Assembly: GCA_030324005.1 (NCBI GenBank)
Contig: JARDVH010000140.1
Span: 24,312,175 to 24,376,174, forward strand
Direction: 5' to 3'
Source: Negaprion brevirostris
Lineage: Eukaryota
Length of the DNA: 64,000 nt
Position 1 is the stretch's first letter. Every line of letters begins with the position of its first letter. Positions 36,117-61,559 of this stretch are shown here, in pieces. The notes beneath the pieces are model-generated. The model had not been told where the DNA came from. It did not search any database and was given only the letters and a program-made list of their open reading frames with translations. A program made the translations under genes and the position numbers.

Positions 36117-37239
36117 GTTTGTAGATCCTGAGGAAAAAGACAGACTTCATTTCTTTAATTATCTACAAATCCATGTGAAAAATTATAATGTCGAGATGGA
36201 TTAAGGCGAGTTTCTAATTTTGTCAAGTTGTTATAAATGAGGTAGTTCCTAATTAAAATGATTTGGCCTATATCCATTCAACATCCATACATTTGATTGC
36301 CTAAAGGTTTAAAAATAACTTCTGTAAATACATTACACGGAGGAATAAAATGATTGCTGCATGAGATGCAATGTGCATTGATGGAAGTGTAGTCTTTAGA
36401 CCTGACTTTTATTCCAAACCAGTGGCAACATAAAGAACGATGTGAATTAAACTGGTTCAGATTAAATGTCAACATAGTGACATCCAGTTCATTTCATCCA
36501 AATCAGGTTGGCAATCCACCACATGCAAACTGTAACTGCAGATCTAAGGGTCTGCAAAATTTATAATTACAGCAAAAAAAATTCTTGACACATTAAGTTT
36601 CTTCCTAGACAAATGCAGAGTATAGTAGAAGTTCTGATTTTCTTTTTACAGAGCCATGAATATGTAACAAATGCTTTAATAATTTTCTTAACACCTATAT
36701 TTGCAACTGCTAACACTTGAAATATGTTTTAAAATATTCTTTTCATGTTTTTGAATGTGCAAATTGAAGTTTTGAATAATATTTTAGAAAAAAAGGTAAT
36801 CAGCATTTTATATGTAACACTCAGATTTCAAGTTACTACATCCAGTTCAGTTGCTTGTATTTTGACATGAGCCAAAAGGTTTGACTTCCAAAATAGAATG
36901 GGAGTTCTTAAACTCCTCTGACAGTAGTGCAAAATTCCAATGTGCTGCACTGTCCCTAAAGCTGGGGAAAATATCACACCCAAAACAATTCGAAGAAACA
37001 GGTGCAGTTCTTTTGGCGCCTGGACAACAGATCCCTATCCACCAATGTGTCCAAAAAAGGTGAACTGGTCATTCATATGACTGCTATTTGTTTTAACATT
37101 TTTGAGCAGAATGGCTGATCCATTTGTTTACATAACATACACTCCAAAGAATTGTTTTTATATATGACATTTCAATATTGTGCAGGGATATCTAAAGCTA
37201 ACAGATAGCAGCTAGATTATTTTGCCCAGCGCCCCCAAA

Positions 37240-38190: not shown

Positions 38191-38369
38191 TGCAAGTGAT
38201 GCAAGGAAAAAGAGAACAAAAGGGGGTGGGGGTTAAGGACTAAACAGCTGCACCTCTCTCTCTAGCTCCCCCAGAGTTGGCAGTGAGATCCTGGAGCTGC
38301 TCGAGACCCTTTCTGCAGGAACTCCTACAATGCAAACCAACTAGGCCGCAACCCAAGCTCAGCTAAAAG

Positions 38370-38700
38370 ATGGGCCACGCTCGCCCTCCATCCACTTCAA
38401 CCCACCCGCCCCGCGGACCCAACTCACAGAATAAAGGGCGATCGGCCCACTCAAACCCACCGGCGTCGTGAGAAGCCCAGCAGCTGTTTATTCCCTCATC
38501 CGCCACTAGGCCTCAGGCTCCACTCACTCCGCCCTCCCGCGAGCGAAACCGCAAAGCACGGCACCCGGATGTCCATGGGCGGGACTTCTGGCGGCACAAG
38601 CGCACCTTCCCATTGGCCCACTGTTCCTGATTGACAGCCGTTCCATCCGATCAGAATGCGGCAGCCTCGGCCCCGCCAAGTCACACCAGTGCCGAGGGAA
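38370..38700 (-). promoter_or_regulatory. CpG-rich promoter and probable non-coding first exon of PRPF8
   Basis: The clearest CpG-dense island in an AT-rich window. GC boxes at 38405, 38577 and 38671; ETS-type CCGGATGT at 38565-38572; CCAAT on the minus strand at 38612-38616. Minus-strand donors GGA|GTGAGT (intron starts 38527) and TCT|GTGAGT (38427) could splice to the acceptor at 36128. Confidence 0.8.
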
Positions 38701-38894
38701 AACACATCACATTTCTACAAAAAAATCAAGTATTTTTTACAAGTGAAGTTCACATTAGATCTGCCAGCGTCTGTAAAGCTTAAAAAAAGACAAGCCACTG
38801 ATTCACAGTTAGAGATTCTTTGCCAACATTTGGTGATAAGCAATTCAGCTAAATTTCGTGCATTTTTATGTCTGCTGAAGGAAATTGGCATTTT

Positions 38895-39160
38895 CATAGA
38901 ATCCTTACAGTGCAGAAAGAGGTCATTTGGCCCACCAAGTCTGCACCAACTTGTCAACAGAGCATCTTATCCAGTCCTGGCCTATTCCTGTAACCCCATA
39001 CATCTACACCCTAATCCCCCGAACCTACACATCTTGGGACACTAAGGGGCAATTTAGCATGGCCAATCCACCTAACCTGCGCATCTTTGGACTGTGGGAG
39101 GAAACCAGAGCACCTGGAGGAAACACAGGGAGATTGTGCAAGATCCACACACACTGTCAC
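38895..39160 (-). mobile_element. HE1-like SINE
   Basis: gggcaatttagcatggccaatccacctaacctgcgcatctttggactgtgggaggaaacc. Confidence 0.85.
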
Positions 39161-39899
39161 CTGTGAGAAACACAGCTCACAGTTAAACAATTTAGTCAAG
39201 TCAAGTTCTGAAGGAGCAAGATTTTATTTGACATTCTTNNNNNNNNNNNNNNNNNNNNNNNNNNNNNNNNNNNNNNNNNNNNNNNNNNNNNNNNNNNNNN
39301 NNNNNNNNNNNNNNNNNNNNNNNNNNNNNNNNNNNNNNNNNNNNNNNNNNNNNNNNNNNNNNNNNNNNNNNNNNNNNNNNNNNNNNNNNNNNNNNNNNNN
39401 NNNNNNNNNNNNNNNNNNNNNNNNNNNNNNNNNNNNNNNNNNNNNNNNNNNNNNNNNNNNNNNNNNNNNNNNNNNNNNNNNNNNNNNNNNNNNNNNNNNN
39501 NNNNNNNNNNNNNNNNNNNNNNNNNNNNNNNNNNNNNNNNNNNNNNNNNNNNNNNNNNNNNNNNNNNNNNNNNNNNNNNNNNNNNNNNNNNNNNNNNNNN
39601 NNNNNNNNNNNNNNNNNNNNNNNNNNNNNNNNNNNNNNNNNNNNNNNNNNNNNNNNNNNNNNNNNNNNNNNNNNNNNNNNNNNNNNNNNNNNNNNNNNNN
39701 NNNNNNNNNNNNNNNNNNNNNNNNNNNNNNNNNNNNNNNNNNNNNNNNNNNNNNNNNNNNNNNNNNNNNNNNNNNNNNNNNNNNNNNNNNNNNNNNNNNN
39801 NNNNNNNNNNNNNNNNNNNNNNNNNNNNNNNNNNNNNNNNNNNNNNNNNNNNNNNGAAAACAAATAATGCTGGGAATGCTAATTGCTCATGGAGATAAT

Positions 39900-40186
39900 T
39901 GGTAGTACAGTGGTTAGCACTGCTGCCTCACAAAATCTGGAACCCGGGTTCAATTCCAGCCTCAGGTCACTGTCTGTGTATTCTCCCTGGGTCTGTGTGG
40001 GTTTCCTCTGGGTCCTCTGGTTTCCTCCATAGTCCAAAGGTACGTGGATTAGGTGAATTGGCCATGCTAAATTGCCCATTAGTGTTAGGCTGGTGTAAAT
40101 ACATGGGGATAAGCCTGGGTGGGATTATGGTCAGTGCAGATGCAATGGGCCAAATGGCCTAGTTCTGCACTGTAGGGATTCTATGA
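39900..40186 (+). mobile_element. HE1-like SINE
   Basis: cagtggttagcactgctgcctcac...gggttcaattcc head through gattctatga tail. Confidence 0.85.
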
Positions 40187-41325
40187 TGAATTTTGAAAAA
40201 TCAAAACTACATTTCCACAATGAAGTAGTGAGAATGGCAGAAGCATAAAAATAGATAGTGGGAGATGTAACAAACTTTACACAGGTGGAGAACAAGGTGC
40301 CTTTTGTACTTGGTGTTTCACTAGCTTGCTGGAGAAATGTAGAGGGTCATCTGACTTGGAAGAAGTTGATGGCTGGAATGGGTGCTAAAATTGAAAACAA
40401 AAATCCATTTGCCAATGTAGATATATAGACATGTTCAAAAATATATAATGTAAGTAAAAAATGTGTAAATATGATGAATGAATGATGTAATATCTTTATC
40501 AAAACTTATAGCTCTCAGTTCCATTATTTTCATCTTACATTTTAGTAATTAAGCATAATGCAGACTTGAACCTATTGAATCAAGGAATTTCCTTAAGATG
40601 ATTTATTGTCATCATGTACATATCTACAAACACGTTATTAATGTTGCCTGAAACCACTGCCAAGACTAAACTAAACTGTTCAGTTTGCCAACTGTTATCT
40701 GATAACGGGAGTTACATTGTTAGAAGAAACAAATATCTAGGTTTATTAAATATTCAATTCAAGTTTATTTGAACTTCCAGGAAAATGCAATCGATTAAGT
40801 GGGTAGTCCTGTGTGGTATTGCTTTAACATTAAAATTATGGTACTTTGATCTGGTGCAAATCCAGAAAGAGTCTTGCTTAGAAGAACCTGATGATACTTA
40901 TGGAGAATCTGGGGACTTGCAGCACATTTGTTATGTTTAACTGCTCATCTGGTTGAGTCTCTCCTCTCACACAGAGCAAAATTCCCTTCAGCATGCATCA
41001 TTTCTGATCTCCTTTAAAAACAGCGACTGTTGCAAGACTTCAGGTTAAAGGACTCATTGCAATGAACCACTTTGGGCACAAAGTGTCTGAATTAAGATTC
41101 TTTTTGAAGGGGTCACTCAGACAGATTTACACAGTGCTTCCAACAACAAAAAAAAGAGTTACAAATACCCTCCCGAGAGGAGGGCATCTTTTTTTCCAGC
41201 ATGTATCATCTCATAGCAACAAAGGAAATTGATCACAGTTTACTGAGAATCCTGTTGAATATCTCATGACTACCTAAATAACAGGTGTTATTGTGAAGAT
41301 CCTGCAAGACCTCAGTCACTGCTGA

Positions 41326-41613
41326 ATGGGGAATAGTTGCTCGTGTACCCACACTACCGTAACTCAAATTCACTTCTTGCAAGGTGATGGCTCTCCACCC
41401 TCGCAAAGAGAATATAAAGACCAGATACAGGTGGAAGTGAAAGCAGGGAGCAAACATGAAGTGGCAGAAGTAAAAGAACAATATGAAAAATGGAACATGC
41501 TCGCTGGAGAAGTCAAAGCACTACTCGACATTCGTCCAAGAGAAGGCAATGTGGAGGAGCTAATGTATCAACTGAATGAAACCTTTAAAGCTGACAGCCT
41601 GGTCATGACATCG
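41326..41613 (+). CDS. Putative first coding exon of the calpain (MGNSCSC...SLVMTS, 96 aa)
   Basis: ATG in tgaATGG context, 288-nt open frame with protein-like composition, donor TCG|GTAATC in phase 0 matching the next exon. Possible upstream acceptor at 41283-41284. No homology evidence. Confidence 0.65.
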
Positions 41614-44600
41614 GTAATCAGATTTATGTGTTATATATATTGCATACTGCCAAGCACTTTGATAAGCATGGGTCTGCTGCTTTTGTCAATTTACTTATAA
41701 TTTGTGCCCGAAATATTTTACTGAAATCTTCATTAGTAGCTCATTATTTTAATTGCATTGTACAATTTAGATGAAAAGAATCTTAAATGTACGTTTTAAA
41801 AAAAATTGAAGTTTGAGACTGGAATCTAAAATTCCTTGCCATTATAGTGTTAAGTGGGCTGCACCTTCCAGACTCTTTAATATTTACAAATCTGTAATGA
41901 GATTGGACTGCAGTATTTGCTTTGGTCCCATGTTGTGTTAGGAGCATCTATTTAATACTCAGAACATCTTCGTACTATCTTTAGAAAGTGAAATGTAATT
42001 GTACATTAATGTTCAGACTCAAAGGAATTCTGATGGAGATGGTGCTATTTTTACAATATGCTATCTTTGTCATACATCTGAATTTCAGAATCTTGTGAAA
42101 GAATACTTTTATGCCTTTGATTATAATATATAATTAAACAAGTGTTTATCTAACATTCCAGGCCCCACTTTATCTGTGCACTGATATTTGTGGGAAGTAG
42201 TACTGTCGTATTCAAAGTATTAAAATAAGGCTGTTGCTTAGTAACTAGTTTGATATTTTTCATTACGTCTGTTTGTTTAGCTTGTGAAAATGCTACATTT
42301 TTAATCCTTTCTGTCAGACCAATAGGGATGTTGATTGTTGCTTGGCAAATTAAGGGACCAAATGTGAATGACAATTTTGTATACAATTAAAAGGAGTCAA
42401 GACTGTGGTAACAAAAAAGATGATGTGATTAATGGGCATTTTAGACTCTGTCCAATTAAGTATTTTATGTAATTAGGTGGGGGGAACTGTGTAAACATAT
42501 CTTTCATCAGTCATACTGCAATTTACAAATAATTGTCATTTCATGCATGTTTGACTTTTAATATGCTGGATATCAGTATTAGTATTCATTTTGGATCAAT
42601 TCTGCTGCTGAATTCCTTTTTAATTAGATTTTTCTTCCTGCACTACAGAGTTCAAGACAAAAGTTTGACCATCTAATTCTATATTTTACTCTAAAACCGC
42701 CACCAACAGTAGTAGATGTCACACTGCAGACAACATAATCCCACTAAATATAGAAACGTAAGAAATAGGTGCAGGAGTAAGCCATTTGGTCCTTCAAGCC
42801 TGCACCACCATTCAATATGATCATGGCTGATCATGCACTTTGGGTATCCCACTCCTGCTTTTTCTCCATACCCCTTGATCCCTTTAGCCGCAAGGGCCAT
42901 GTCTGGTGCCTTCTTGAACATATCTAATGCATAATAACTTCATAGTTATACTCTACATCTGTGGGAATGGTAGCGTGTGCTCAAAATCTAGAAAGCAGGA
43001 CTTGCACTGGCAAGTTTCTGCTTTTTCCTCTGGGATTTTGCAGATTGGGGCTTGATGGGGATGATTGGTATGGTCTTACACCGAATATTCAAGCACAGAT
43101 GCTGCTTTTTGAGTTAAGAGAGAGCAGCGTCTCTCTCTTCTCGCCTTCGAAGTTGGAGACTGGAATCAGCCAGAAGATAAATTTCTTTCTTGGAAATTCT
43201 GCTGTCTGAGAGCTGCTGTTTTGAAAATTGCTGTCTGACCTCTATTAAAAAGCTGAAAATCCAGCATCATGTGAGCATACTTATTTTTGTGCTAACTAAT
43301 TCTTAAGAAGAGTGTATGTCCTGTGACCAAGATATCATCCAGGCACACTACTACCTGCGGTAACTCTTGGAGTATGTAAATCATGCCATTAATATTCAAA
43401 TCCATCCCACCGGCAAAACAGTGCCAGTAACTCTGAACACGGCATGAAACTGATCACGAACCCAATTTCTGGCCTTGCATGCAATCCTATCAGTTCACTG
43501 TGCTGATCGACTGGCACAGCAAGCTGGTAAGATTGTAGCCAAAATCGGCGTGAGTGGAGCCAATTTGGTTTAAACCTCCCCCTGCACCTTCCCTATTGGG
43601 CAAGCCTCCAATCGCCTAATAGGGGAGCTTGTGTTCAATGTGGCTCATGGGGAGATCTATTGATGATCTTCCGTGGTCCTCTTAACAAACTCCCAACATC
43701 TTATCAACCCCAGCTCTCCACATATCCTGCCACTGGCTCGAGCAGAAAATCCAACCCCATCTTTCAGGTTAATAGCCTTTCAATTGCACAGCATTTCCTG
43801 CTTTTTGTTCTTATTTCAGATTTTCAGCAGCCACAATATTTTACTTTTGGTATAGTTGGAGGAGGAATGCTGTTTGAATACGTGATCTGTTAGGTCATTA
43901 ATATTACCAGCAGCCATTCCTAGCTTGTAATAGTTACATGATACATATTATTTTTAATACACAGAAAAAGATATTATTCCATTGTAACTGTCAGACCGAT
44001 TTTATTTTTATTCAGAACTATCAGAAAATTATAGAAGAGCTTGAGCTGACTGGTAAACTCTGGGAAGACCCCGAATTTCTCCCTGAACCTTCATCATTAA
44101 CTTATGAGGACATAGCCCCAGAAGGAATCAAATGGATGCGCACCTTGGTAACTGTGCAATGATTTCATACCGATCAGCCTTAGATATAGCTAGCTCCACT
44201 TGAAACAAACAACTATCCTAAACTATTCTGGAAGTTTAAGTATCTATCGAGGATAAAATGATTGGGAATATATGCTACAGCATGAAAGGTAGATATTGTG
44301 AAAAAATGTAAGGATAGAAATTTGCTTTGGATAAACATGTGCAGGTTAGGTGGATTGGCCATGCTAAATTGCCCCTTACTGTTGGGGGACTAGCTAGAGT
44401 AAATGCATCGGGTTGTGGAGGTGGGGTTTGGGTGGGATTGTGGTTGCTGCAGATCGATGGGTCGAATGGCCTCCTTCTGCACTGTTGGGATTCTATGATT
44501 CTATAGATTCTATGATAATAGAGCAAAACAAGCAGTTATTATACAACAGCTCCCACATCCACTATATATATAGTTCCTTTAATAGTGGAAAATATCAGGA

Positions 44601-47600
44601 GGTGAGGACTAAAATCAGGAGACCCATTGCAGATTAAAAATTATTGCCCATGACTAATTTTGACTCTGTACTCTCTTACAAATGATTTAAAGCATTATTT
44701 CCCATGGACAATTTCAATGAGAAACAAGCAGCTCCAGCACAGCAAGCAGCACTTGCTGTAGTTTTACTTTAGTTTCTTAAAGCTGTCAGGGATAAGTGAC
44801 AGATTGTAACATAATCCAATAAGAGGAAAACCGAAAATGCTGGAACTTCACATTGAGTCAGCCAATCTGCAAAAGAGAAAAGTTAGGTTAGCATTTCAGG
44901 TGTGTTAATGAGAGTATATTTCAAGAAACATTTCCTTAAATCAAGATTCATTGATGTATAAAGCTATCTGCCTAAAATCTTAAGGCTACCATCCCTTCTC
45001 CACAGATGATGGCTGATCTATGACCATTTCCAGCATTTTCTCTTCAAATTCACATATATTTACTTAATAGCTGTACTTTCAATGAATTTCCTTAAAATCT
45101 GAGCTGATCTGTTTGTTTTTTTTTGTAAGCTAGAAGTTTAAGTATCACTATGTAGAGACATAGTGAGTAACTTGACCTGATAAATTATTGCAAAGGGAGC
45201 CTTGTCGTAGATTCTGCTTGCCATGATGTTAGAATTTTCAATGCTTATGTAACAAAATGCTGTCATGAGGAATTTTGTATTGAGGATGGTGTGCAAATTG
45301 AATAAACAATTAAAGAGGAAAGAATTTACAGGGCTTATGGGAAAAGAGCAAGGGAATGGCATGAAATAGGTAGTTCCACCAAAGAATTGGAACAGCTGTG
45401 ATGGGCCGAATGGCCTCTTTTGTGCAGTTTTGCTACATGATTCCATGAAATGCAAGTCGTTGATTAGAGTTGAAATGGTGAACAGGAGAAGAATACTCCA
45501 CTTTGTAAATTATTTATTTCTTTGTTCTTAGGATCTGCATGAAAATGCTTTCTTTGTAACAGATGGGGTTAGCAAAAGTGACATTATCCAGGGAGAGTTG
45601 GGAGACTGCTGGTTCTGGGCCTCTGTGGCTACAATAGCCAATTCCAGAAGACTGATTGAGTGGGTTATTCCAACTGGTGAGAATTTATATTTTTAAAATT
45701 GAGATTTCAGGCTACCATACTAAAGTTTTCTGTTCACAATGTTTAAAACAAAATATAGAGAAGCTTAAGCTTTGCAGATCTGTAGAGACATAGTGAGTAA
45801 CTTGACCTGATAAATTATTGCAAAGGGAGCCTTGTCGTATGATTCTGCTTGCCATGATGTTAGAATTTTCAATGCTTATGTAACAAAATGCTGTAATATT
45901 TTCCCACTTACGTCTCACCCAGGGTACACTGCACTTATATGCAGTGTCACTGACTTCTGATAATGGAACAAATCAAATTTAATTTTCAATGCATGGGATC
46001 TAGGATTCTTACCAACATTTTGGAGATCACATCCCATGATTCCATCCACATTAACCATGCATATCTATAAACTTTGGGGACTTTTAAAAACAGTCGCCCT
46101 TCGGGATGCAGCTAGAGGCTTTTAGATAGTCTTTGGAATTGAATAAACTTCACATTCAAGTCAACCTTGACATTTAGCTTATGATGTCTCCTGGGCTAGG
46201 TTTCAGCCTTGTATTTCAACTCAAAAAACTATTACATTTTCCAATTGAGGTTCAAATATGAATCTTATAACACTCCTTTATCTCTGCAGTATTTTTAATT
46301 AAAATTTTAATTCATTTTAAAGCCTGTTTTAAAATAGCACATATAGGAAATTAATAGTGAAACACCAAGGGTTGAATGTTTTGGACTCTTTAGAACATCG
46401 GGGAGGCAGGGGGGCTGGCAGAATTGAAGCAGAAGATGTTGGAAGAAGAGACTGATGTTTTCTTGCCATTGTGATATTTTGTTGGAAAAGAAGAAAGTTT
46501 GAATAGTCACCGTGCGGCCAATTGAACCACTTAAGCGCAAACTGGCAGCCTTCCCAGAGGCTCTGGAGGGGTAGGGTGGGGGCCTTTCTTTTTGGGCAAT
46601 CTAGGGCTTACAAAAGGGCTCCCAGGGCAATGACTAACCTGACAGCAACAGCATTGCCAATACTTCACAACCTATTCCCCCATCCCCAATCACATGGGCC
46701 TGACTGCCTGGTTCAGCTTCCTCCCGTACAGCCTTAACACTCTTAAGAGTGCCTGACAATTGAGGCATCCTTTTCCTGTATTGTTGCCTCCATCTGATTG
46801 GTCCAACAGCTCCTGAGGTGGGTTGCCATCCTTAATTAGTTGGTGGCCCAGTCAACGTCTGTTCATTGGCTGTCTCTGGCAAAATGTCAGCATGGGTCCT
46901 GCCGCCTGTTGAAGTGTGATTGTTTCTCACTTTCAGCTTTGGCAATGGGACTTGCTGGCAATCAGCAATCTGGTGATATTGCCTTGAAAAGATGGTGGTG
47001 GATGTTCTTCTTGAATTGCTGTTGTGTTAATGTTGTTAATGGGGAATCCCAGTGTTTGATTCAGCAACAATGAAATAATGGCAAAGTTGCTTAGAAAGGA
47101 ACTAGACGTTGATGGTGTTCCCTTTACATGCATATCTTTGTCTTCCTCTGGGACAGGTGACTTGGAGCTAGGAAATGCTGTTGAACTAAACTTGCAATGT
47201 TGCTGCAAAGCATTTTGTAATGAATGCAAAACAGTGGTAGAGAAAGTTTTGGTAGCAGCACCAATCAAGAATACTGTATTCACCTGGACTTTGTTAGTTG
47301 CTGCTTTTGGTTTATACCATTGGTAGGATTTTGCGGTCCTACCCGCTGCAAGACCAAAAATGTTTATCTGAGGTTAACAGATCTTTCAATAGTTTGTCAA
47401 ATTGTCTGTCCTGCCCCCAGTGATTTCTGTGGTGGGGTGGAGGGGGGGTGGTTTGTAATGGAGATGTGAGTGATCCGCCTGGCTATGATGGTGCATGATT
47501 TCAAGATTGATCGCCCACTGTTCCACATGGATTCCCAGCATTCTAATGTTAGACTTGTACTTAATCTATCCCATTAGCAATGAAGTGGAACCACACTGTG

Positions 47601-50600: not shown

Positions 50601-53600
50601 GGGGGACTTCTCCTGCCCCACCATTGAAAACGCGTCACCACTATCACCCACACCTCGTACCAGCGCAGATACTCGCACTTCTATGGGATCACTAAGTAAA
50701 CAAGCTTCTGGGCCACACACTGGTGAGGACCTCACAGTTGAAGATCCACAGCAGTTGGAGGCAGGGATGTCCCAGGAAATTGGCACACAGAAGAGTGTCA
50801 GAGCTCAGGACTCTGCTGAGCCTCTGGCTAATGACATGTCCCTGGGCCCTGTTGCCCCACAGCTGCTGGAGTGCAGAGGCATCAGGAAGGGATGACAGCA
50901 TCCCTCCTCCGACTGCAAGGCCAACTGGAGGAGTCCCATTGTCTTCTGTCAGGCGAATTGGTGCCATCACTGCATCACACCAAGACCAACACTGTCAGGG
51001 TGGCGTCTGTAGTGGAGACCTTGGCATAGCATGACCACTCGATGAGCAGGAGATGTCCACATCACGACTCAGCTCATGACCCTGTCTGAGGGCATGAGCT
51101 CCATGATGCAGGGCTTTGACTGCATGGTGCAGGCACTGGTGGGAATCGACAAGTGTCAGTGCCCGAAGACGGTGGAGTTCTGGCTCTCACTCCAGCTGCC
51201 CTCCTCTATTCCATGGAGGAGCACAGGGAGCCGCCCCAGGACCCCAAACAGAAAAGGATTCAAGAAGGCAGCTCACCGCCACCTTCTCAAGGGCATCTAG
51301 GGATGGGCAATAAATGCTGGCCAGCCAGTGATGCCCATGTGCCATGAATGAACAAAAAAAAAGGATTGGCAGGAATACCGCCCGGGCCACTCCTGCCAAG
51401 GGACCCTAGGCATCTCCAGCCCATCTGACATTCTCCCTTCCCTGTGAGCAACACATTTCCAGCCCCTGAAACTGAGGACAGCAAATATCCATGCTGCCCG
51501 AAAGCGGGCCTGGACTCTCCAGTTCCCGGCTCACTCCCCACGGGTCACCCACCAAGGTCATCTCAGGCAGTCCTTGCCATGTGTGGAAGTCAGCAGGCCA
51601 CTTCAACCTTAACTGTGGATCCTGAGGATACACCTAGATGTAGCGTGAGGATGAGGAAAATTAAGAAACTGTAGGTACTAAGTAGGCACAGGTAAATATG
51701 GGCACTAGTGTAGATGGGTCACCATTGTATTGAATGCTTGTCATTCAAATTCACTTTGTTCACCCACATAGCTTCCACCCCTGCCTGTTCTTGTCACCAA
51801 GCTTGGGGAAGCACTGTGCTCACCTGCTGCCTTGTCCCCGTGGAGTGTGAGAATGGCAGTGCATTGTCCCTCCCACACTGACAGGAAGGTTGCAGTAGTG
51901 GGGCACAGCTGCTGGTAGCCCCTCCCCATCCCCGAGTCCATCCCTCAATCCCCATCTGTAAAAGGGTGAGCCCCCTTTACTCCCCCACCAAAGCTCAACC
52001 CCTTTTATATCTGGCATGGGCACTGGTGAGGCCGCAGCTGGAGTACTGTGTGCAGTTTTGGTTGCCGCACTTACGCAAGGATATTTTGGCCTTGNNNNNN
52101 NNNNNNNNNNNNNNNNNNNNNNNNNNNNNNNNNNNNNNNNNNNNNNNNNNNNNNNNNNNNNNNNNNNNNNNNNNNNNNNNNNNNNNNNNNNNNNTATTGA
52201 ATGGCGGGGCAGGCTCGAAGGGCTCGATGGCCTACTCCTGCTCCTATTTCTTATGTTCTTATGTTCTTATGATCACATGGCCTTAGTCCTGTTATGCAGT
52301 TGAAGTACTGTTGCAGAGGTAAAAGGAATTATTAGGAGCAATTAGGAGTAAATTGCTAAAGGAAATTTTTCAGATAGTAAGGGGAGTGTCTAACAAATAT
52401 ATCCTAATGCTCACAGGCCAGTATATTACTGGGAAAACTCCTTACTATGGAATCTTTCGTTTCCGATTCTGGCAATTTGGAAAATGGGTGGAAATTCTGG
52501 TGGATGATTATTTGCCAACAAGAGATGGACAACTTATTTATGCCAGATCAGAAGCTGACAATGAATTCTGGCCGTCGCTTTTTGAAAAGGCCTTTGCAAA
52601 GTAAGTGTAATCAATTCCTTGTCAGATTTATGTTTCACTGTTACATAACATGCCTGTACCAAACACACTGTGGTGTGGCGATATGAACAGCTGATATTCT
52701 GCTGAACAGGATCCTCTATTTATACTAATACCTGGAGAAAATGTTCAACAATTTCACTGTTTGATTAATATTGTGTTTGATATATCATATATCCATATCT
52801 ATTTTCCTGTCATCTAGTTGGATTCCTATATCCATGCTTACAGTAGAAATTTCCCATGTAAATGCACCATTCTGCAATTAAGAGTTCCTATCACTAAGGC
52901 AGCACTGAGCTGAGGGGTGAGGTTCTATGTATCATAAAAGGAAGTCCTGCTTACAGCAACATCATAGAATTGTAGAATGGTTACAGCACAGAAGGAGGCC
53001 ATTCAGCCACTCATGGCTATGCTAGCTAATAGCACGAGGAACTCAGCTAGTTGCAGTCCTCTGTCTTTTCTCTGAAATCTTGCAATTTCTTTCTCTCCAG
53101 GTTCAATTTCCTTTTGAAAGCCATTACTGGATGTGCCTTCATCACACTCTAAGTCCCAACCACTCCCTGTGTAAAATGATTTTTCCTCATTCCATCTTTG
53201 ATTCTTTTGCCATTCACCTTAATGAATCAATGTCCTCTGGTTCTCAAACCTGTTGCCAATGTGAAGAGGTTTTCCCTGTCTACTCTGTCTATATCCCTCA
53301 TGATTTTGAAAATTTCTATAAAATCTCCCCCCAACTTCTGTTTTCTCTGGAGACCAATTCAATTTCTCCAATCTATCTTTAAAATTTAAAGTGCTGCTTA
53401 CTTGGCATGTGACCAAGATATCTGGGCGATAACAATTTGGAAACAAGGGCCCATGAGTTAGTTATCGGGGTGAGTAGACTGTGAGTGTAGCTCTGCTCTC
53501 AAACAAGGTTATAGATTTTAGTTTTAGAATAAGCTAAGCGCAGGACACATCTCTTTCAAGCAGGATTCAGTTGAAATTCTGTGCATTGGCTACAAAGAAT

Positions 53601-56600
53601 TAAAACCTCTTGTTAATTGTAAGACTCTTGGCAATGAGTTGGACTTCTAGGAAAAGCCAAGCAGGGAGAGAGAGTTTTAGATGCAAAACTCCAAAGTTAA
53701 GGAATATTAAAACTAGAAAGGTTTTGACCTGAAATGGCTCTGCTCAAGAAGCTAGTGATGCCACTGTGAGCTGGAAGTCTCCAAATATGGGACCTTGGAG
53801 GAGATTAAATGGGGCAACCTTTCTAGTAGAAAGCCCAAGAAATCTCAGTTTTCACTTGAAACTTTGAAACAGTACTGAGACCAGGTTTAATCTTCCAATT
53901 TCTGATAAGTGTCTGACTTGTGTTTTTGAGGTGTAAGTCAAATGAGTGCAGAAGGAAAGTTGAGCTGGGGGAGTTCTCCAGTCGTATCAGATGGCCAGTC
54001 GAAATCTTGTTGGCCTACAGAAAAGAGTGTTGGCCAAAAATTGGTTTGATGACCCATTTACTGGCCCCCTGCCATTAACCTGTCTCTTCAGCAGGAAATA
54101 CACAAGGTGGGCTTTGATGCTGGCAATGACCAGCCTGGACCTGGTGTGCTGGACCCTGAGGGTCCAGGGAGCAACACCAGCTCGCCAGCCAGCAAATGCA
54201 AGAGGCGTTCATCCCTCCACCACTGAAATAACAACACAATGCAGATATGAGGGTGACCCAAATCAAACTCCCTCAACCCCCTTTCACCCTCAGAACCCCA
54301 CTCAGTCTCTTCCCCCCCAGACCCTCATTCAGGGCCCTTTCAGGCCATGCACCATGGCAGTGTCAATAATGCACTGCCCCTTGGCACCCTGGTAATACAC
54401 CTGCCAGGCCAGGCTGCAAAGGAAGAGTCCCTCAAGCCTACCAGAGCTGGTTGGCTGGGGGCAAGGTGTTGATTTCATTCCTCTCCCCTGAGATTGGGAG
54501 ACATGGTTGGATGGCCCTTTCTAGCCCTGGCAGACCTGAAGATCAGCCCCGGCATGATGATTTCAGGTAGCTCTGTGATTAATAACTACATTCCTGCCTG
54601 TCAACTGTGAAACTTTGAAGTGATCTAGTCAATTTAATGTCCATGCCCCCTCAACAGCTGGAAGACTCTTAAATTACAGCAGACTTCATTCTGCAGCAGA
54701 GACTTCTCTTTCTCTCTGTCAGAAGCTGAGCTGAGACCCCTTTGAAATCTTCTGACAGAGAGATGTCAATTTCACTGTGGATGGGTGGGGGGGGGGGGTT
54801 TCCTTCTCCGCAGCTGTTCACTCAACTCCAATGTATTCCCACTGCTTTTATTTGAAATCTCTGAGCCTTCCTAGAAAGCTGAGACCTTTGAAAACTTTTG
54901 ATCTCTTTCAATTTCATAGCACATACTATGAAATAGGCTTTAATTCATAGCTTAATGGATTTCTACTCAGCCTTCAGTCATCTTATTTACCTTTCCCTTC
55001 ACACTTGAATGCATCTCAAGTACCCCCATTGTTCCTAACCACAATGTTTCCAAGACAAACCTGATTGATAGCTGTGGTTTCTTCAAAGGGAATAAATGGT
55101 TTCACTTCCTATTTTGAAGACAAATATCTGTGTTAGCAACATTGTCATTTGTATTCACATTCTTTGATTTTTTTGTGTTGTAAAATTATTGAATTTTGTG
55201 TTGTAAAATTATTTGAATTTTCAAAAGAAAAAGAATATAAAGAAAAATGGTGCAAGTCTTTGCTTTAATTTAGATTAAATAGTATAAAATGAAAGCAGAA
55301 AATGGTGGGAGAACACTGAATAAGTCTGTTCGCATCTGTGGAGAAAAAAAACAGTTAATGTTTTGTGTCCATGTGACTTCTTTCAAGCTGAAGAATTCAG
55401 ATCTTACGGATGGAATCTCTACAGTGCAGAAGGAGGCAATTCAGACCATTGAGCCTGCACCAACAACAATCCCACACATGCCCTAATCCTGTAACGCCAT
55501 GCATTTACCCTGCTACTCCCCGTCATCAGTAAGGGTCAATTCAGCATAGCCAATCAACCTAACTCAGACATCTTTGGACTGTGGGAGGAAAGCAGGGCAG
55601 CCAGGGGAAACCCACACAGATATAGGGAGAATGTGCAAGCTCCATACAGACATCACCTAAGGCTGGAATCGAACCGGGTCCCTGGCGCTGTGAAGCAGCC
55701 ACCATGCCACTCTGTTTCTCTCTCCACAGATGCTCCTGGACCCCCTGAGAGTTCTTCCAACATTTTCTGTCTTTTAATTTCAGATTTCCAGCATCCACAG
55801 TATGTTGCTTTTAACACGTGATTTTATTTTGCCTCTCCATTGTCTTCTCAACCATCAAATCAGTATTCAACGATTGTCCTGTGCAGTTATTTGCCTACTT
55901 CTTTTGCATCATCATTGGATTTTACCTGCAGGTTGCACGGGTCATATAAGGCGATTGAAGGAGGGTGGACACTGGATGCTCTGACAGACCTCACTGGCGG
56001 TGTTGGTGAGATCTACAGGTTTTCAGAATTTGCAGATAGGTACGAGGAACTGTACAACCATCTTGCTGCTGCTTCTCGGAAGAATGCTTTGATGGCCTGT
56101 GGAACAGGAAAGGTTAGACCGGTGATATTCTGTAGAAGACTCATACGAAACGTTAACTCGGTTTCTCTCTCCACAGATGTTGTCAGATCTGCTGAGATTT
56201 TCCAGCATTTTCTGTTAAAGCAAGTTGAAGTTGATCTTCTTCCTAATATTGCTAATTACTTTTTGGAGAGGACCTAATGCTGGCCACAATAAGAGTGGAC
56301 AGGTTTACAAAGGGATGTAAAATAAGCAACACGGAATTGGTTGCTTATTAAACATCTTGCTAGATTATCCATTCCATTGATGTTAGGTGCATTGACTATG
56401 CTAAATTCGCCCTCAATGTACCTGAACAGGTGCCGGAGTATGGTGAGTACTTATTCACGGTAAGTTCATTGCAGTGTTATTGTAAGCCTACTTGTAACAC
56501 TATAATTAAACTTCAATATACAATGAGAGTGCTGTGAAGAGGCACATTTTTGCTCAGCCAGAATCTAATCTACTGGAACTAAGCAATAATAACATAAAAT

Positions 56601-59600
56601 TATTGCATTCATCTTTTTATTTAATCCCAACATCAACATTTCCGGCAAGAATTTGTGTTCTAATAATGCATTTCCAAATGCTGCTTGTAATTTAACAAGT
56701 ACTTCTTGCTGGCAAGGACCCAGCTTGCCATCGTGCTTATTGACAAAGTGTGGGACTCTTCATCGAGATTTTTCCCTTGTGTTTGCTTGGCCTGGGCTGC
56801 CACTGGACAAAGCTCTCTACTGACAGATTAAACCTGAAATATTGGTGCATAATGTAACTGTCAAGGCCAAAGCTAAGTATTTGAGCATAACTCCATGAAC
56901 AATAGCTGAACTGTTGTCATATTTTTTGCAGCACTTTTGACTTACGACTTTCTCCACCTAAATTTTATTCAGGAAGATGAAGGATATGAAAAGCAAGATG
57001 GTTTAGTAGCTGGCCATGCCTATAGTGTTACTGCAGTAAGAAAGGTAAACTGTCAGAACAAAAAAACTGCCATTGTTTCTTATTGCAGAATTAAGTTCCA
57101 CTCCTTTTTATATTCCCCACTCATTAGCCTGTTTCAAGGAATGTGTCACTTTCTTTGACAATGTAATTCTGCATATTTTTGTAAAATAAGTACGCAATAG
57201 ATCATTATATATTGCTCATGGTAAGTCCTTTCATCCTATGAGTTGTCTATCTCTCAGTCGGTGACTGAGTTTCTGTGACACTTCCTGTGTGAGAATGAGA
57301 ATTTTCTCACGGTATCGTTGTGTAATGTCCTGTGGATTCATTTGTCTCTGTCTTCTTCTCCCATCAATGCCTCTCTCTATTCACTTGTATTTCTCCTTCT
57401 CTGCGCCCTGATATTTGACACTATTGATTTTTGTCTGTCTTGAACCTAAGGTATCTCTCCTTTCTTGTCCGTTTCAGCTAATCTCTTTGTCTTTTCATAT
57501 GGGGCGGCACGGTGGCACAGTGGTTAGCACTGCTGCCACACAGCGCCAGGGACCCAGGTTCAATTCTGGTTTCGGTTCATTGCACATTCTTCCGGCGTCT
57601 GCATGGGTTTCCTCCAGGTGCTCTGGTTTCCTCCCACCATCCAAAGATATGCAGGTTAGGTTGATTGGCTATGCTAAATTGACCCTGGTGTCGAGGGATA
57701 AATATGTTCAGTTTCAGGAATATGGCTGCAGGTGGGATTGTGGTCGGTACAGACTTGGTGGGCCGAATGGCCTCCTTCTGTACTGTAGAATCTATGATTC
57801 TAATTTTTATCCCCACTGATATGAGTTGATCTCTTTTCTCTTTCTGTTGTTTGTTTCTTTGTTACCACCTGGCACTCTCTTTCTATGCCCCATTTTCTCT
57901 ACTTATACACAATATTTCAACGTAGTCCCAATTTTAAAATTTTTGTTCCCATCCCCCTACTCAAAATATTTCTTTTTCTCCTTGGCTTGACTTCATTCTA
58001 CCTGCAAAATCTCAGTGTTACCCAGGGGATGTGGAGATGGGGAAGGCCACACACAATACACCCACTCTAATGGGACTCAACCAATTAGAGTCTGACGTCA
58101 CTCCAAATTGTCTGCTGATTCCAAGCCTATCAGCAAATGCAGAGCTATCAGGCTCTGCTTGGTCTCCCAGAACTGTGGCTGGCACACCCTCCCCCCCTCC
58201 CCCGTTGGTCGGGGCCCTGTGCTTAGACACAGTGTGTTTCATTGTAATTCTGCCTCTAGGTGCTGGGCAGGGAGGGATGACGGAGAACAATATTTAGATG
58301 GAGTTGTGGAGCCAAAGGGAAAGACACAGGGGGGCGATTTTACCAAAGAATGAGTGTGAAAACAAGAGAGAATTATGCCCATTTTTGGGCGAGCTCCCAG
58401 ACACTTTCTTATGTCATTTAGAAAGAAAAATGAGACAAAGTGTGATTCTCACCAGTAGGGGGAGTGGATGGAGTCTACTTATGCTGGGAACTCTGCTGCA
58501 GACTGCTAAAGGGTCCTTTTGCTCATATGCCCTGCTCTCCCAGTGTATTGTGTGCAAGAGTACATAATGCATTGGGAATCCGTCTCGGCTGTGCACCTCT
58601 CCAGACATTACACCCCACCCCTATGTTTGCCCCACCCCAATCACGGCCCCCTGATCACCCCCCCAATTTCACGCCCCCGCATTGCTCCCCACTTGATAAA
58701 GCACCTGGTCACTTCCTCAGGACTCCTTGCAATGCTTCTTAATGAGTAAGTTACCTTTTGAGATGTAGTCGCTCGTGTCAGGTTGGCACGTGGAAGACAA
58801 TTGCCCAACAATTTGCTTTTATATGACAATATACTGCAGCACGTTGCAGGGTCATAAACAATTGAGATGACGATCTCAGATCTGTCCTCAGGCCAACAGA
58901 TCTGAAGTATCAGCCAATGCTAATAATTGATGGCTGACACATTGAACATACCAATTGCCAAAGAGGCTTTGTATAACCTTGCACGCAATGGTGTTTGCCA
59001 CTCACATTTCCCTGAATTCAGTACATCAAGGACAAAAAAGCCCTCGGTTATTTGAGCCTGACGACGTGGAAATCCAATGCCCAAAGCTTTGCAATAGTTT
59101 GGGTGAAGTATGCATTAGTGATCTCTCTGTTAGTTGGCATGTGACACTCACGTGTAGTCTGACTTGTATGACTTAGCCTCTCCTTCCCAAAGGCAGTGGC
59201 AAGACCCTGACCTGGGTTTGGTTATACTGACTTGAGAAACTTATTTGATGATGGATCGCTAATAGAAGATGCTCCCTCGAGTTATAAAGCATTGGAACTT
59301 GTTACTTTTAGGTGACATCTGGTTTTGATTGTTTTTGATGTGTCCTCAATCCTTTTATCTTTACAACCCATGAATCACCCAATTTTACTGGTTTAGTTTA
59401 TAACAGTTTATCACACTATATTAAAAACAATCTGATCTGGTTATATGGGTGAGGCCCAAGCATCAGCTGGAATGGCATCTACATGTGTGTCTGTGCCTTT
59501 CTCCACCTTTCTCTTGTCTCACAGCAGAATGAAGGGTTACCTGCTCATCTTTCAGTCTTAACACAATAAAGGCAACTACAATCACAGTCTATCAAAACAT

Positions 59601-61559
59601 AAAGCAACTTCTAAATATCAAAACAAGCCAGCCAGCCTAGCTTTACAGAGATTGGGTGCCCATTTTAAAGGATGCCCCGATCTCAGTGCTGAGAAATAGG
59701 AAACCCTTCCCCTCACAATACACCTGGTGAAGCCCGCTGACAAGGAGAGCACCCCTAATGCCTCAGCATAGAGGTGCATCCTCCCCCATCACTGGAAGAA
59801 CAGATCGTCCCTCCTACACCGTGCAGGCATGAGGGTGACCTGACTCCCCCTCCTCCCAGGCAGAACCCTCACTTCTCCCCGCCCCCCACAAGACAGACAC
59901 TCTAAGGTGGGGACTCACCTCCTCAAACCACCCTCAATCTCCCTTCAGGCACCGCCCCTTGGCAGTGCCAATCTTGCATTGCCCTCTGGCATCCTGGCAG
60001 TGATGCTCTGATGTGATGCGTCTGAGGGGAGTGCATAGAGATAAATCCTGCACCCATGTGCTCCTCTGCTGCTGCCAGGCTGCACAGGGAGGGTTTCCAA
60101 AAGATCTGGTAATTCGGTGGACTTGAATTAGGATGAAGGGGTTGAATTTTGGGGACTCTTCGCAGGATGGTGGTCTAGCGGCTGCACTTGTCCCTGTTGC
60201 CCTGGCAAAGGTGGTAACTTCTAGAATGGTGATTTCATTAATGTGAAGGATTTTCAGTAATGTCTTTGTCCTTTAAAACATTGGGAGTGTCCTGGTCACT
60301 TTGATATCCATGCCCCATGTATAGCTGGATACTTTCAAAATCACTGCAGCACTCCATTTCACACTAGGGATTGGCTTAGGTGTTAAATAACCTCTTAAAA
60401 GTATCTGATAGAAAAGTCAGTTTTACCGGTAGATCCCCTTGTTTTCTCTCATGAGGCTCAGATGCCTGGAAATTTCTTTGAATAACAGCATGAACTAAGT
60501 TTCACTGGGCAGTTCCCCTTTTAACATTGAAAGGGTATTATCGAGTGTCTGGGTCCTTTGATGTATTTTGATTGACAGGTTGGATCACTTACCCGCTAGC
60601 CAGGAGCTTTTTTAAATTTTTCTTTCCCTTCATGGTTGAATGTTTCTCATGTGCTTTGAAAATATTTTGGTTAGAAAGAGGAACCGAAATACCATAATTG
60701 ATCCAAATATGTGCGTGTTAGATTGATTGGCCAAGCTAAATTGACCCTTAGTATCAGCAGGATTAGCAGGGTAAATATGTGGGGTTATAGGAATAGAGTG
60801 TGGGTGGGATTGCTGTTGGTGCAGGCTCAATGGGACGAATGGCCTTCTTTGGGGGGGGGTGTGGAGAGGGAGNNNNNNNNNNNNNNNNNNNNNNNNNNNN
60901 NNNNNNNNNNNNNNNNNNNNNNNNNGGTTATTTAAATAATTTATGCAGCTGTGCACCAATTTCTGGCACAGAGCTGATGGCTCTTGAAATCTGGCTGCCA
61001 GACGGAGGCCTAGGCATCCAGCGGGTAGCCCACGAAACGGCTTCTGCCTGAGTATCCCAGCCTGCTGTGCTACAAAATCAGTGCAGTGGGCTGGGAGAAT
61101 TGTCCTGGGCTGTTTATAAACATTGGAGTTGGGAACTACGTTGGCAGCAGGCCATCGGGATTAGACTATAAGATACAGGAGCAGAATTAGACCACTTGGC
61201 CCATTGAGTCTGCTCCGCGATTCCCAGTTAGAGTGAACAAAACTGAAGAATCCTGGCCATAGTGTTTTCTGTGATGTTTCTCTCGGCCAGAATATATGTT
61301 AATAACCTTCAAGGAACACTTTTTAAAATTTCTACAGCTAAATTCTTGACTTTGTCTTTTTTGTTGTACAGCTTTGAATCCTCTCCAGCTCCCATTGATG
61401 TTGATATAAAGGATCTGAATTCTGGAGATACTGACTGTACTTCTTAAAACTTTGTTTTCTATAGCTGACCACTCCAAAAGGCAGAGTCCCCCTTGTTCGG
61501 ATTCTGAATCCATGGGGATCGGGGCACAACATGGAATGGACAGGTGACTGGAGCGATGA
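41326..61559 (+). CDS. Calpain-family (peptidase C2, CysPc) cysteine protease, 5' part; 7 exons, continues beyond window
   Basis: In-phase GT-AG exons give WEDPEF, QGELGDCWF (catalytic Cys), [58 protein letters not shown] (His) and NPWG...EWTGDWSD (Asn). No stops or frameshifts. The paralog cannot be assigned by eye. Confidence 0.93.
42750..42925 (-). mobile_element. CR1 3' tail
   Basis: aagaaataggtgcaggagtaagccatt...ccccttgatccctttag. Confidence 0.75.
44016..44147 (+). CDS. Calpain exon (NYQKIIEEL...LWEDPEF...IKWMRTL)
   Basis: 132 nt, ttcag/GTAACT, start of the CysPc domain. Confidence 0.9.
44335..44515 (+). mobile_element. HE1-like SINE 3' part
   Basis: gtgcaggttaggtggattggccatgctaaattgcccc...(gattctat)n. 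Confidence 0.8.
45151..45263 (+). repeat. Direct repeat copy 1 (113 bp)
   Basis: Identical to 45781-45894 except for one 1-bp indel. Confidence 0.95.
45532..45676 (+). CDS. Calpain exon with catalytic Cys (DLHENAFF...IIQGELGDCWFWAS...VIPT)
   Basis: 145 nt, cttag/GTGAGA; read by hand, absent from the ORF track. Confidence 0.93.
45781..45894 (+). repeat. Direct repeat copy 2 (114 bp)
   Basis: tgtagagacatagtgagtaacttgacctg...gtaacaaaatgctgt. Confidence 0.95.
49524..49772 (+). mobile_element. HE1-like SINE
   Basis: tggtggcacagtggttagcattgcttcctcacagcgccaggga head. Confidence 0.85.
50115..51960 (+). mobile_element. GC-rich decayed transposon remnant, possibly the Myb/SANT-like region of a Harbinger element
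   Basis: Abrupt GC-rich block with many short shifting ORFs; weak resemblance near 50290-50360 to Harbinger Myb-like N-termini; family call tentative. Confidence 0.4.
51975..52272 (+). mobile_element. CR1 fragment spanning a gap
   Basis: [25 protein letters not shown] motif and (ttcttatg)n tail. Confidence 0.85.
52417..52600 (+). CDS. Calpain exon ([21 protein letters not shown]...EKAFAK)
   Basis: 184 nt, cacag/GTAAGT, phase 1 to 2. Confidence 0.93.
52960..53375 (-). mobile_element. CR1/L2-type LINE 3' fragment
   Basis: Tail acagcacagaaggaggccattcagcc and decayed C-terminal coding region. Confidence 0.7.
55410..55710 (-). mobile_element. HE1-like SINE nested in a Penelope-like palindrome (55289-55812)
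   Basis: ggaatcgaaccgggtccctggcgctgtgaagcagc head in reverse; flanked by inverted arms. Confidence 0.8.
55932..56112 (+). CDS. Calpain exon (LHGSYKAIEGG...ALMACGTGK)
   Basis: 181 nt, tgcag/GTTAGA, phase 2 to 0. Confidence 0.92.
56973..57044 (+). CDS. Calpain exon with catalytic His ([24 protein letters not shown])
   Basis: 72 nt, ttcag/GTAAAC. Confidence 0.93.
57503..57800 (+). mobile_element. HE1-like SINE, near full length
   Basis: ggcggcacggtggcacagtggttagcactgctgccacacagcgccagggacccaggttcaattc (Pol III A/B boxes) through atctatgattc. Confidence 0.9.
61465..61559 (+). CDS. Calpain exon with catalytic Asn (LTTPKGRVPLVRILNPWGSGHNMEWTGDWSD)
   Basis: 95 nt, tatag/GTAAGT; read by hand. Confidence 0.92.

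Follow-up and report, generated by a model that had tools for sequence, protein, structure and literature searches.

The gene described here is best explained as an unnumbered, non-classical calpain with an N-terminal tether, the CysPc protease core and one CBSW domain, but no penta-EF-hand (PEF) domain, and its first coding exon is predicted to encode an acyl anchor: judged from sequence comparison, this calpain of non-teleost fishes would be myristoylated, probably S-acylated as well and independent of the small subunit, a reading to which we assign a probability of roughly two in three. The exon lies at positions 41326–41613 on the forward strand of a 64-kb window from Negaprion brevirostris (the window being the whole 64,000-nucleotide stretch of DNA that was analysed); its translation is 96 residues long and begins MGNSCSCTHTTVTQIH, with MGNSCSC at the N-terminus.

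Seven exons on the forward strand of the window, all AG/GT-bounded and phase-compatible, give 365 codons with 0 stops and an intact Cys/His/Asn triad. Exon 1 is followed by exon 2 (44016–44147), in which the CysPc domain starts (WEDPEF); exon 3 (45532–45676), with the catalytic Cys in QGELGDCW (codon 45607–45609); exon 4 (52417–52600), part of CysPc and matched by Pfam Peptidase_C2 with an E value of 4e-22; exon 5 (55932–56112), also CysPc; exon 6 (56973–57044), with the catalytic His in GHAY (codon 57015–57017); and exon 7 (61465–61559), with the catalytic Asn in NPW (codon 61507–61509). The initial annotation had described a 96-codon exon starting MGNSCSC with a phase-0 donor fitting the first CysPc exon, and had taken it as the first coding exon of a catalytic calpain; the first description is confirmed and the second supported, with the donor GT at 41614 in phase 0, exon 2 preceded by an AG acceptor and read in frame, and a junction that, by tblastn and ortholog proteins, appears to be the same as in the annotated orthologs. 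Peptidase_C2 matches the calpain exons both in the window and in the orthologs, showing the CysPc domain to be present. None of the remaining 3' exons was found within the 64-kb window: the C-terminal half of the shark gene lies outside it, and the absence of the PEF domain and the linker loop discussed below are taken from the orthologs.

An upstream in-frame start, which had been named as an observation that would overturn the assignment, is excluded within the exon by in-frame stops 5' of the ATG (TGA at 41323, immediately adjacent; 41275; 41230). Since these stops precede the ATG, a possible non-coding upstream exon, joined at a candidate splice acceptor ending at 41199, could not extend the frame. 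This acceptor and a putative 5' UTR, identified by sequence scan, occupy 41180–41325 (forward strand) and contain two upstream ORFs, with ATGs at 41201 (22 codons) and 41266 (3 codons); the context of the main ATG is weak, with T at -3, and this T and the two short upstream ORFs (41201–41277) might keep the yield of the MG form low. Very high-copy interspersed repeats at 38900–39200, 39800–40340 and 44316–44600 flank exons 1 and 2 (contig depth 10^5–10^6), and a 617-base N gap at 39239–39855 could conceal a non-coding exon; an Rfam scan of the window returned 0 matches. The head-to-head neighbour of the calpain is PRPF8 on the minus strand, with PRO8NT matched by its 5' exons in 3 of the 4 ORFs scanned and a start codon that, placed by a sequence motif, presumably lies near 36130. 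A CpG-rich island at ~38200–38900 (GC 0.64 and CpG o/e 0.86 at 38401–38700) lies between the two genes and could be a candidate shared or bidirectional promoter.

The MGxxxS/Cys motif is weak evidence on its own, as it is not rare: 13 of the 1577 ATG starts in the window (open for at least 10 codons) read MGxxx[ST], and 5 of the 1577 also have a Cys at positions 3–8. The evidence for an anchor is therefore the conservation of residues 1–16 against a diverged linker, which exceeds chance. Exon 1 comprises an anchor segment (codons 1–16, 41326–41373, forward strand) with the predicted myristoylation site (Gly2, Ser6), Cys5, Cys7 and a conserved HTTVTQIH block, then a variable linker (residues 17–55), a conserved short helix (W56–P71) and a second predicted helix before the phase-0 donor, both helices being of low confidence in the orthologs. 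Compared with the shark, residues 1–16 are identical at 16/16 positions in bamboo shark, 14/16 in skate, 15/16 in sturgeon, 14/16 in paddlefish and 15/16 in bichir; over residues 17–55 the corresponding values are 21/39, 9/39, 3/39, 2/39 and 3/39, and over residues 56–73 they are 15/18, 15/18, 9/18, 7/18 and 5/18. Conservation of Gly2, Cys5, Ser6 and Cys7 in other species, proposed as a check in the initial annotation, was found in all 8 other-species models that begin with MG, in which HTTVTQIH is likewise invariant (9 MG-type vertebrate starts counting the window), while 5 of the 13 other-species models reaching exon 1 have no MG start; these 13 are one chosen model per species, those of elephant shark, coelacanth and lungfish stopping short of exon 1. 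With exon 1 alone as query, the sole Pfam match was YkuI_C, below the cutoff, and the ESM Atlas gave no usable match; the profile library gave 3 matches, one of which, P0127, was rejected as a chance similarity to an unrelated repeat protein.

MGNSCS, with the start taken from the sequence, satisfies the myristoylation signature M1GXXX[ACGST] (PMC9018777), and position 7 is a Cys and not the Lys that is preferred, in a non-obligatory manner, in myristoylated N-termini (PMC10381334). Following removal of Met1, N-myristoyltransferase would be expected to modify Gly2. Myristate alone is described as binding membranes weakly, with a palmitate or a basic patch needed in addition (PMC13143043), and residues 1–20 have a net charge of 0 and no basic patch; for these reasons the second anchor is assigned to Cys5 and/or Cys7, to which a DHHC enzyme would add it. 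An analogous arrangement is reported for the N-terminus of FRS2-alpha, where a myristoylated Gly2 and two palmitoylated Cys residues are both needed for full membrane binding, although FRS2-alpha is an unrelated adaptor with its Cys residues at positions 4 and 5 instead of 5 and 7 (PMC13143043). The protein would then be trapped reversibly on Golgi or plasma-membrane surfaces. In constructs of G-alpha-o, Cys5 of MGNTC was poorly palmitoylated, whereas MGSLCSR bound Golgi membranes (PMC9018777), and because of this difference Cys7 or the sequence context may matter, and the Golgi would be as likely a destination as the plasma membrane. The earlier wording of a "constitutively" membrane-anchored calpain is consequently overstated: S-acylation is reversible, and Cys5 was a poor site in the MGNTC construct (PMC9018777).

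The same constructs bear on an alternative that we consider rather unlikely, namely that the protein is only myristoylated and binds membranes weakly and transiently, with Cys5, Cys7 and HTTVTQIH forming a partner-binding motif (such as a beta-strand ligand or a site for a myristoyl-cargo carrier) or serving metal or disulfide chemistry. MGNTC-GFP was mainly cytosolic with residual palmitate only (PMC9018777), residues 9–16 are invariant though dispensable for acylation, and 7 of the 19 invertebrate MG starts described below have no nearby Cys, all of which would fit such a protein; on the other hand, both Cys residues are invariant in 9/9 MG-type vertebrate starts including the window, a second, basic signal is absent, and MGSLCSR, which also carries Cys5, bound Golgi membranes well (PMC9018777).

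Orthologs were collected by word-based searches. Exon 1 as query led to the calpains of bamboo shark, Heptranchias and thorny skate (3 of 27 candidates), and over ~260 columns the core is 90–91% identical to that of Heptranchias. The skate protein matched 337 proteins, and among the best 120 of these were 10 vertebrate rows with 54–100% identity, from sharks, rays, sturgeons, paddlefish, bichir, lungfish and coelacanth, followed by invertebrate calpains with 37–44%. Across all 46 matches of a search for shorter proteins we found 11 fragments with 62–86% identity (reedfish, elephant shark, rays, sharks and coelacanth) and two named tetrapod rows with 42–44%. Bird "CAN13" and frog "calpain-2-like" fragments were rejected as tetrapod orthologs given their identity of 42–44% and their grouping with classical calpains. 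No teleost or tetrapod ortholog was thus present among the best 120 of the 337 full-length matches or among all 46 shorter-protein matches, and gar, bowfin and lampreys were also without a match in this word-based search; loss of the PEF-less calpain in teleosts and tetrapods is likely.

Full-length orthologs have 575–642 residues, and in five full-length or near-full orthologs Pfam identified Peptidase_C2 and one Calpain_III domain only. The proteins end 11–21 residues past CBSW in 17/17 rows, and no EF-hand Pfam match, as a C-terminal penta-EF-hand would give, was obtained in the orthologs; C2, MIT, a second CBSW and zinc-finger/SOH domains were likewise absent from the five orthologs, which are therefore not of the Tra/CAPN5, PalB/CAPN7, CAPN10 or SOL/CAPN15 type. 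CysPc followed by a single C2L/CBSW domain is the architecture of the bilaterian "Truncated" calpains, and the databases carry the orthologs under the automatic name "calpain-A-like". A Cys lies within the last five residues of P0130, P0010, P0184, P0011 and P0128 (sturgeon, paddlefish, bichir, lungfish and Narcine), in none of them as a CaaX box; in these orthologs it is a possible second S-acylation site.

The best invertebrate matches lack PEF as well, and they resemble the vertebrate group in the segment between CysPc and CBSW. GPDF follows the last CysPc strand in 0/86 other rows but in 17/17 PEF-less rows from vertebrates and 24/24 from invertebrates, and the aligned calpain-1/2 chains do not have it; a relaxed Dx[DN]x[DN]G motif after GPDF, which forms a loop between strands in the model, is found in 16/17, 21/24 and 0/86 rows, respectively. 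The 24 invertebrate rows were grouped by rank, by the lack of an EF-hand Pfam match and by inspection. All the rows are related, so that these counts are not independent events. Included in the 86 "other" rows are six that lack both PEF and the linker; four of these six entered the tree and were placed among arthropod CalpA/B. The linker reads, for example, GPDFDGDGGAD in P0004 (residues 406–417), a family signature that matches the Dx[DN]xDG loop. Starts of the form MGxxx[ACGST] occur in 19/24 invertebrate PEF-less rows versus 4/86 others, 12 of the 19 with a Cys at positions 3–8 and 7 without. The PEF-containing arthropod calpain P0110, from the ostracod Cyprideis, also begins MGxxxS with a Cys at position 7, which suggests that calpains acquired acylation motifs repeatedly.

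In all three trees the vertebrate group formed a single clade (99–100) with the window protein among the sharks. In the two trees that also included distant outgroups and two or three fragments of classical vertebrate calpains, this clade fell outside the classical branch (80/81 in one, 94 in the other). Its position relative to the invertebrate group is less clear: the tie is unsupported in one tree, and the two are not joined in the best CysPc tree with outgroups. In AU tests, a clade of the vertebrate group with the invertebrate group (p 0.061) and one with the frog calpain-2-like row (p 0.088) were not rejected, while clades with the CAPN13 rows (p 0.002) and with the three classical vertebrate rows together (p 0.011) were. 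We base the probable orthology with the invertebrate group on domain architecture, the linker signature, the N-terminus and the ranking by score, and not on the tree. The lineage is probably as old as the bilaterians and would survive in cartilaginous fishes, bichirs, sturgeons, lungfish and coelacanth. The anchor is probably old and common to the invertebrate PEF-less calpains and not specific to sharks, and the initial annotation overlooked the PEF-less, probably ancient nature of the family.

These data also weigh on the proposal, in our view unlikely, that the gene branched off within vertebrates from a classical (or CAPN5/CAPN10-type) calpain, lost its C-terminal domain and gained an anchor independently of the invertebrate PEF-less calpains. 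The long stem branch of the vertebrate group (0.59–0.9) and the AU value of 0.088 with the frog fragment are compatible with such an origin, the trees took in no vertebrate CAPN5, 6, 7 or 10 row, and CAPN10 has been weakly grouped with the Truncated family (PMC5650170); against it stand the two rejected clades (p 0.011 and p 0.002), bit scores of 439 to a hemichordate protein versus 339 to calpain-1/2 structures (obtained from different databases) and the common GPDF linker, seen in neither the 86 other rows nor the calpain-1/2 chains. In classical CAPN1/2/3/8/9/11/12/13/14/17 the CysPc and CBSW folds and the triad are as in the shark family, with ~33–40% identity (PMC4043111, a vertebrate survey that, in its accessible text, covers classical calpains only), while the calpains of the shark family differ in having no PEF, no PEF-mediated small-subunit dimer of the kind described for classical calpains (PMC7001764, PMC3315469), the GPDF linker and the acylation motif.

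The structure of the family was modelled using AlphaFold2 for the skate (38-row alignment) and sterlet (41 rows) proteins. Both models exhibit a confident CysPc-CBSW body, for which m-calpain is the closest structure (TM 0.72). In the extension the pLDDT is 24–36 in the skate and sturgeon models, with one or two short helices of low confidence only, and the helical N-terminal segment expected from the initial annotation did not materialise: a folded helical domain was rejected, pLDDT remaining below 50 over residues 1–90 (skate) and 1–110 (sturgeon). The W56 helix ranks among the top four hydrophobic-moment windows in sturgeon and bichir, not in shark or skate. We regard the extension as a flexible, mostly disordered tether in which the tip and a single short helix are conserved, and the 80–110 residues of this tether would keep the protease close to the membrane. 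The core acidic motifs, which we take to be the Ca2+ ligands in calpain-1, are conserved in the shark calpain, and Ca2+-dependent proteolysis is predicted. Without a PEF domain, the protein would be unable to dimerise with the small subunit. Activation would come from Ca2+ binding at the two core sites, perhaps assisted by the candidate Dx[DN]xDG loop between CysPc and CBSW, and the activated protease would clip membrane-proximal substrates. As a candidate calcium loop, the linker motif might substitute for the absent EF-hands. The Ca2+-binding Dx[DN]xDG loop is described as a linear motif in a loop combined with a later acidic ligand, in a text whose accessible part does not contain the word "calpain" (PMC3123361).

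Not every gene model carries the MG start. Of the five without an MG start, those of Heptranchias, Narcine and Pristiophorus diverge from the family near residue 19–20, and those of Hemitrygon and Scyliorhinus begin at inner Met codons; all five may be annotation errors or genuine alternative starts. In skates and sterlet there are also shorter X2 isoforms, which begin inside CysPc and so lack the MG start, and many shark and ray models of the calpain are split into halves. Separate models of ~195 residues named "calpain clp-1-like" (P0142, P0143, P0145, P0187 and P0191) in sharks and rays represent the C-terminal third of the same gene, reflecting split annotation, an internal promoter or decay. 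A set of alternative N-termini that includes the MG form, with an internal acceptor near codon 19–20 or leaky scanning to downstream Met codons yielding a soluble major isoform in at least some sharks and rays and the gene perhaps decaying in some lineages, would accord with the shared divergence at ~residue 19–20, the X2 isoforms, the split models and the weak Kozak context, but is quite unlikely in view of the strong constraint on residues 1–16, the core identity of 90–91% to Heptranchias over ~260 columns, codon 19 in the window being CAA (hence no CAG acceptor there) and the lack of any pyrimidine-rich YAG acceptor inside the coding exon by sequence scan.

The proposed reversible acyl anchor on a PEF-less calpain has precedents in its separate parts: the proteins are already in databases as "calpain-A-like", acylated calpains occur elsewhere and the Truncated architecture is known. 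As a precedent, the initial annotation had cited trypanosome CAP5.5, which we take to be a dually acylated calpain-like protein without a complete triad. The general parallel stands, yet the calpain of Plasmodium falciparum is closer and has been tested: it has the catalytic residues, is myristoylated at Gly2 and palmitoylated at Cys3 and Cys22, with palmitoylation dependent on myristoylation, where the shark gene offers the motif only; unlike in the shark protein, its N-terminal domain is very long and contains a nuclear/nucleolar signal (PMC2746569). The same paper, in its accessible part, names Drosophila Sol as the sole other calpain with a putative myristoylation signal. Human CAPN5 is a non-classical vertebrate calpain that is S-acylated (Cys4, Cys512 and likely Cys507) and membrane-associated, again compared with a Cys motif only here, although it differs from the orthologs in making its first membrane contact via a C-terminal C2 domain, and no myristoylation is described in the accessible text; CAPN6 is S-acylated too (bioRxiv 10.1101/2022.01.25.477766). 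The initial annotation knew of no N-myristoylated vertebrate calpain, and none turned up in our literature search, which found no paper on the shark gene or on a myristoylated animal calpain, most subscription journals being outside its scope; "myristoyl" does not occur in the accessible text of PMC10762896, PMC13413365 or PMC3315469.

The nearest relatives by architecture are the Truncated calpains, a bilaterian family proposed with weak support in a study that leaves open how its members act and are regulated (Hastings et al. 2017, PMC5650170). Its member AplTRUNC1 has CysPc and one C2L/CBSW domain without PEF, as in the shark orthologs, and the family is represented in molluscs, a chelicerate, an echinoderm and amphioxus. 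Our invertebrate matches span these taxa too, and the Aplysia protein among them (P0031) may be the published XP_005105403.1; in contrast to our findings, the accessible text gives no vertebrate member (the vertebrates named are human, Xenopus and zebrafish) and does not mention myristoylation (PMC5650170).

Taken one step further, the shark gene could represent an ancestral extra calpain of jawed vertebrates beyond CAPN1–17, belonging to a subfamily of bilaterian age in which a myristoyl and palmitoyl anchor and a Dx[DN]xDG loop replace PEF and the small subunit, and lost twice, in teleosts and in tetrapods; we put this forward tentatively, at somewhat less than even odds. Because no human ortholog is evident, the medical relevance of the finding is limited. 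How calpains gain access to membranes and to enough cellular Ca2+ is a long-standing question, and the gene supplies a vertebrate example carrying two candidate devices for it, an acyl anchor and a calcium loop. If true, the reading as an ancestral extra calpain would explain how the uncharacterised Truncated calpains are targeted and activated, and the known set of vertebrate calpains would gain a branch so far missing from it, one that was lost twice independently.
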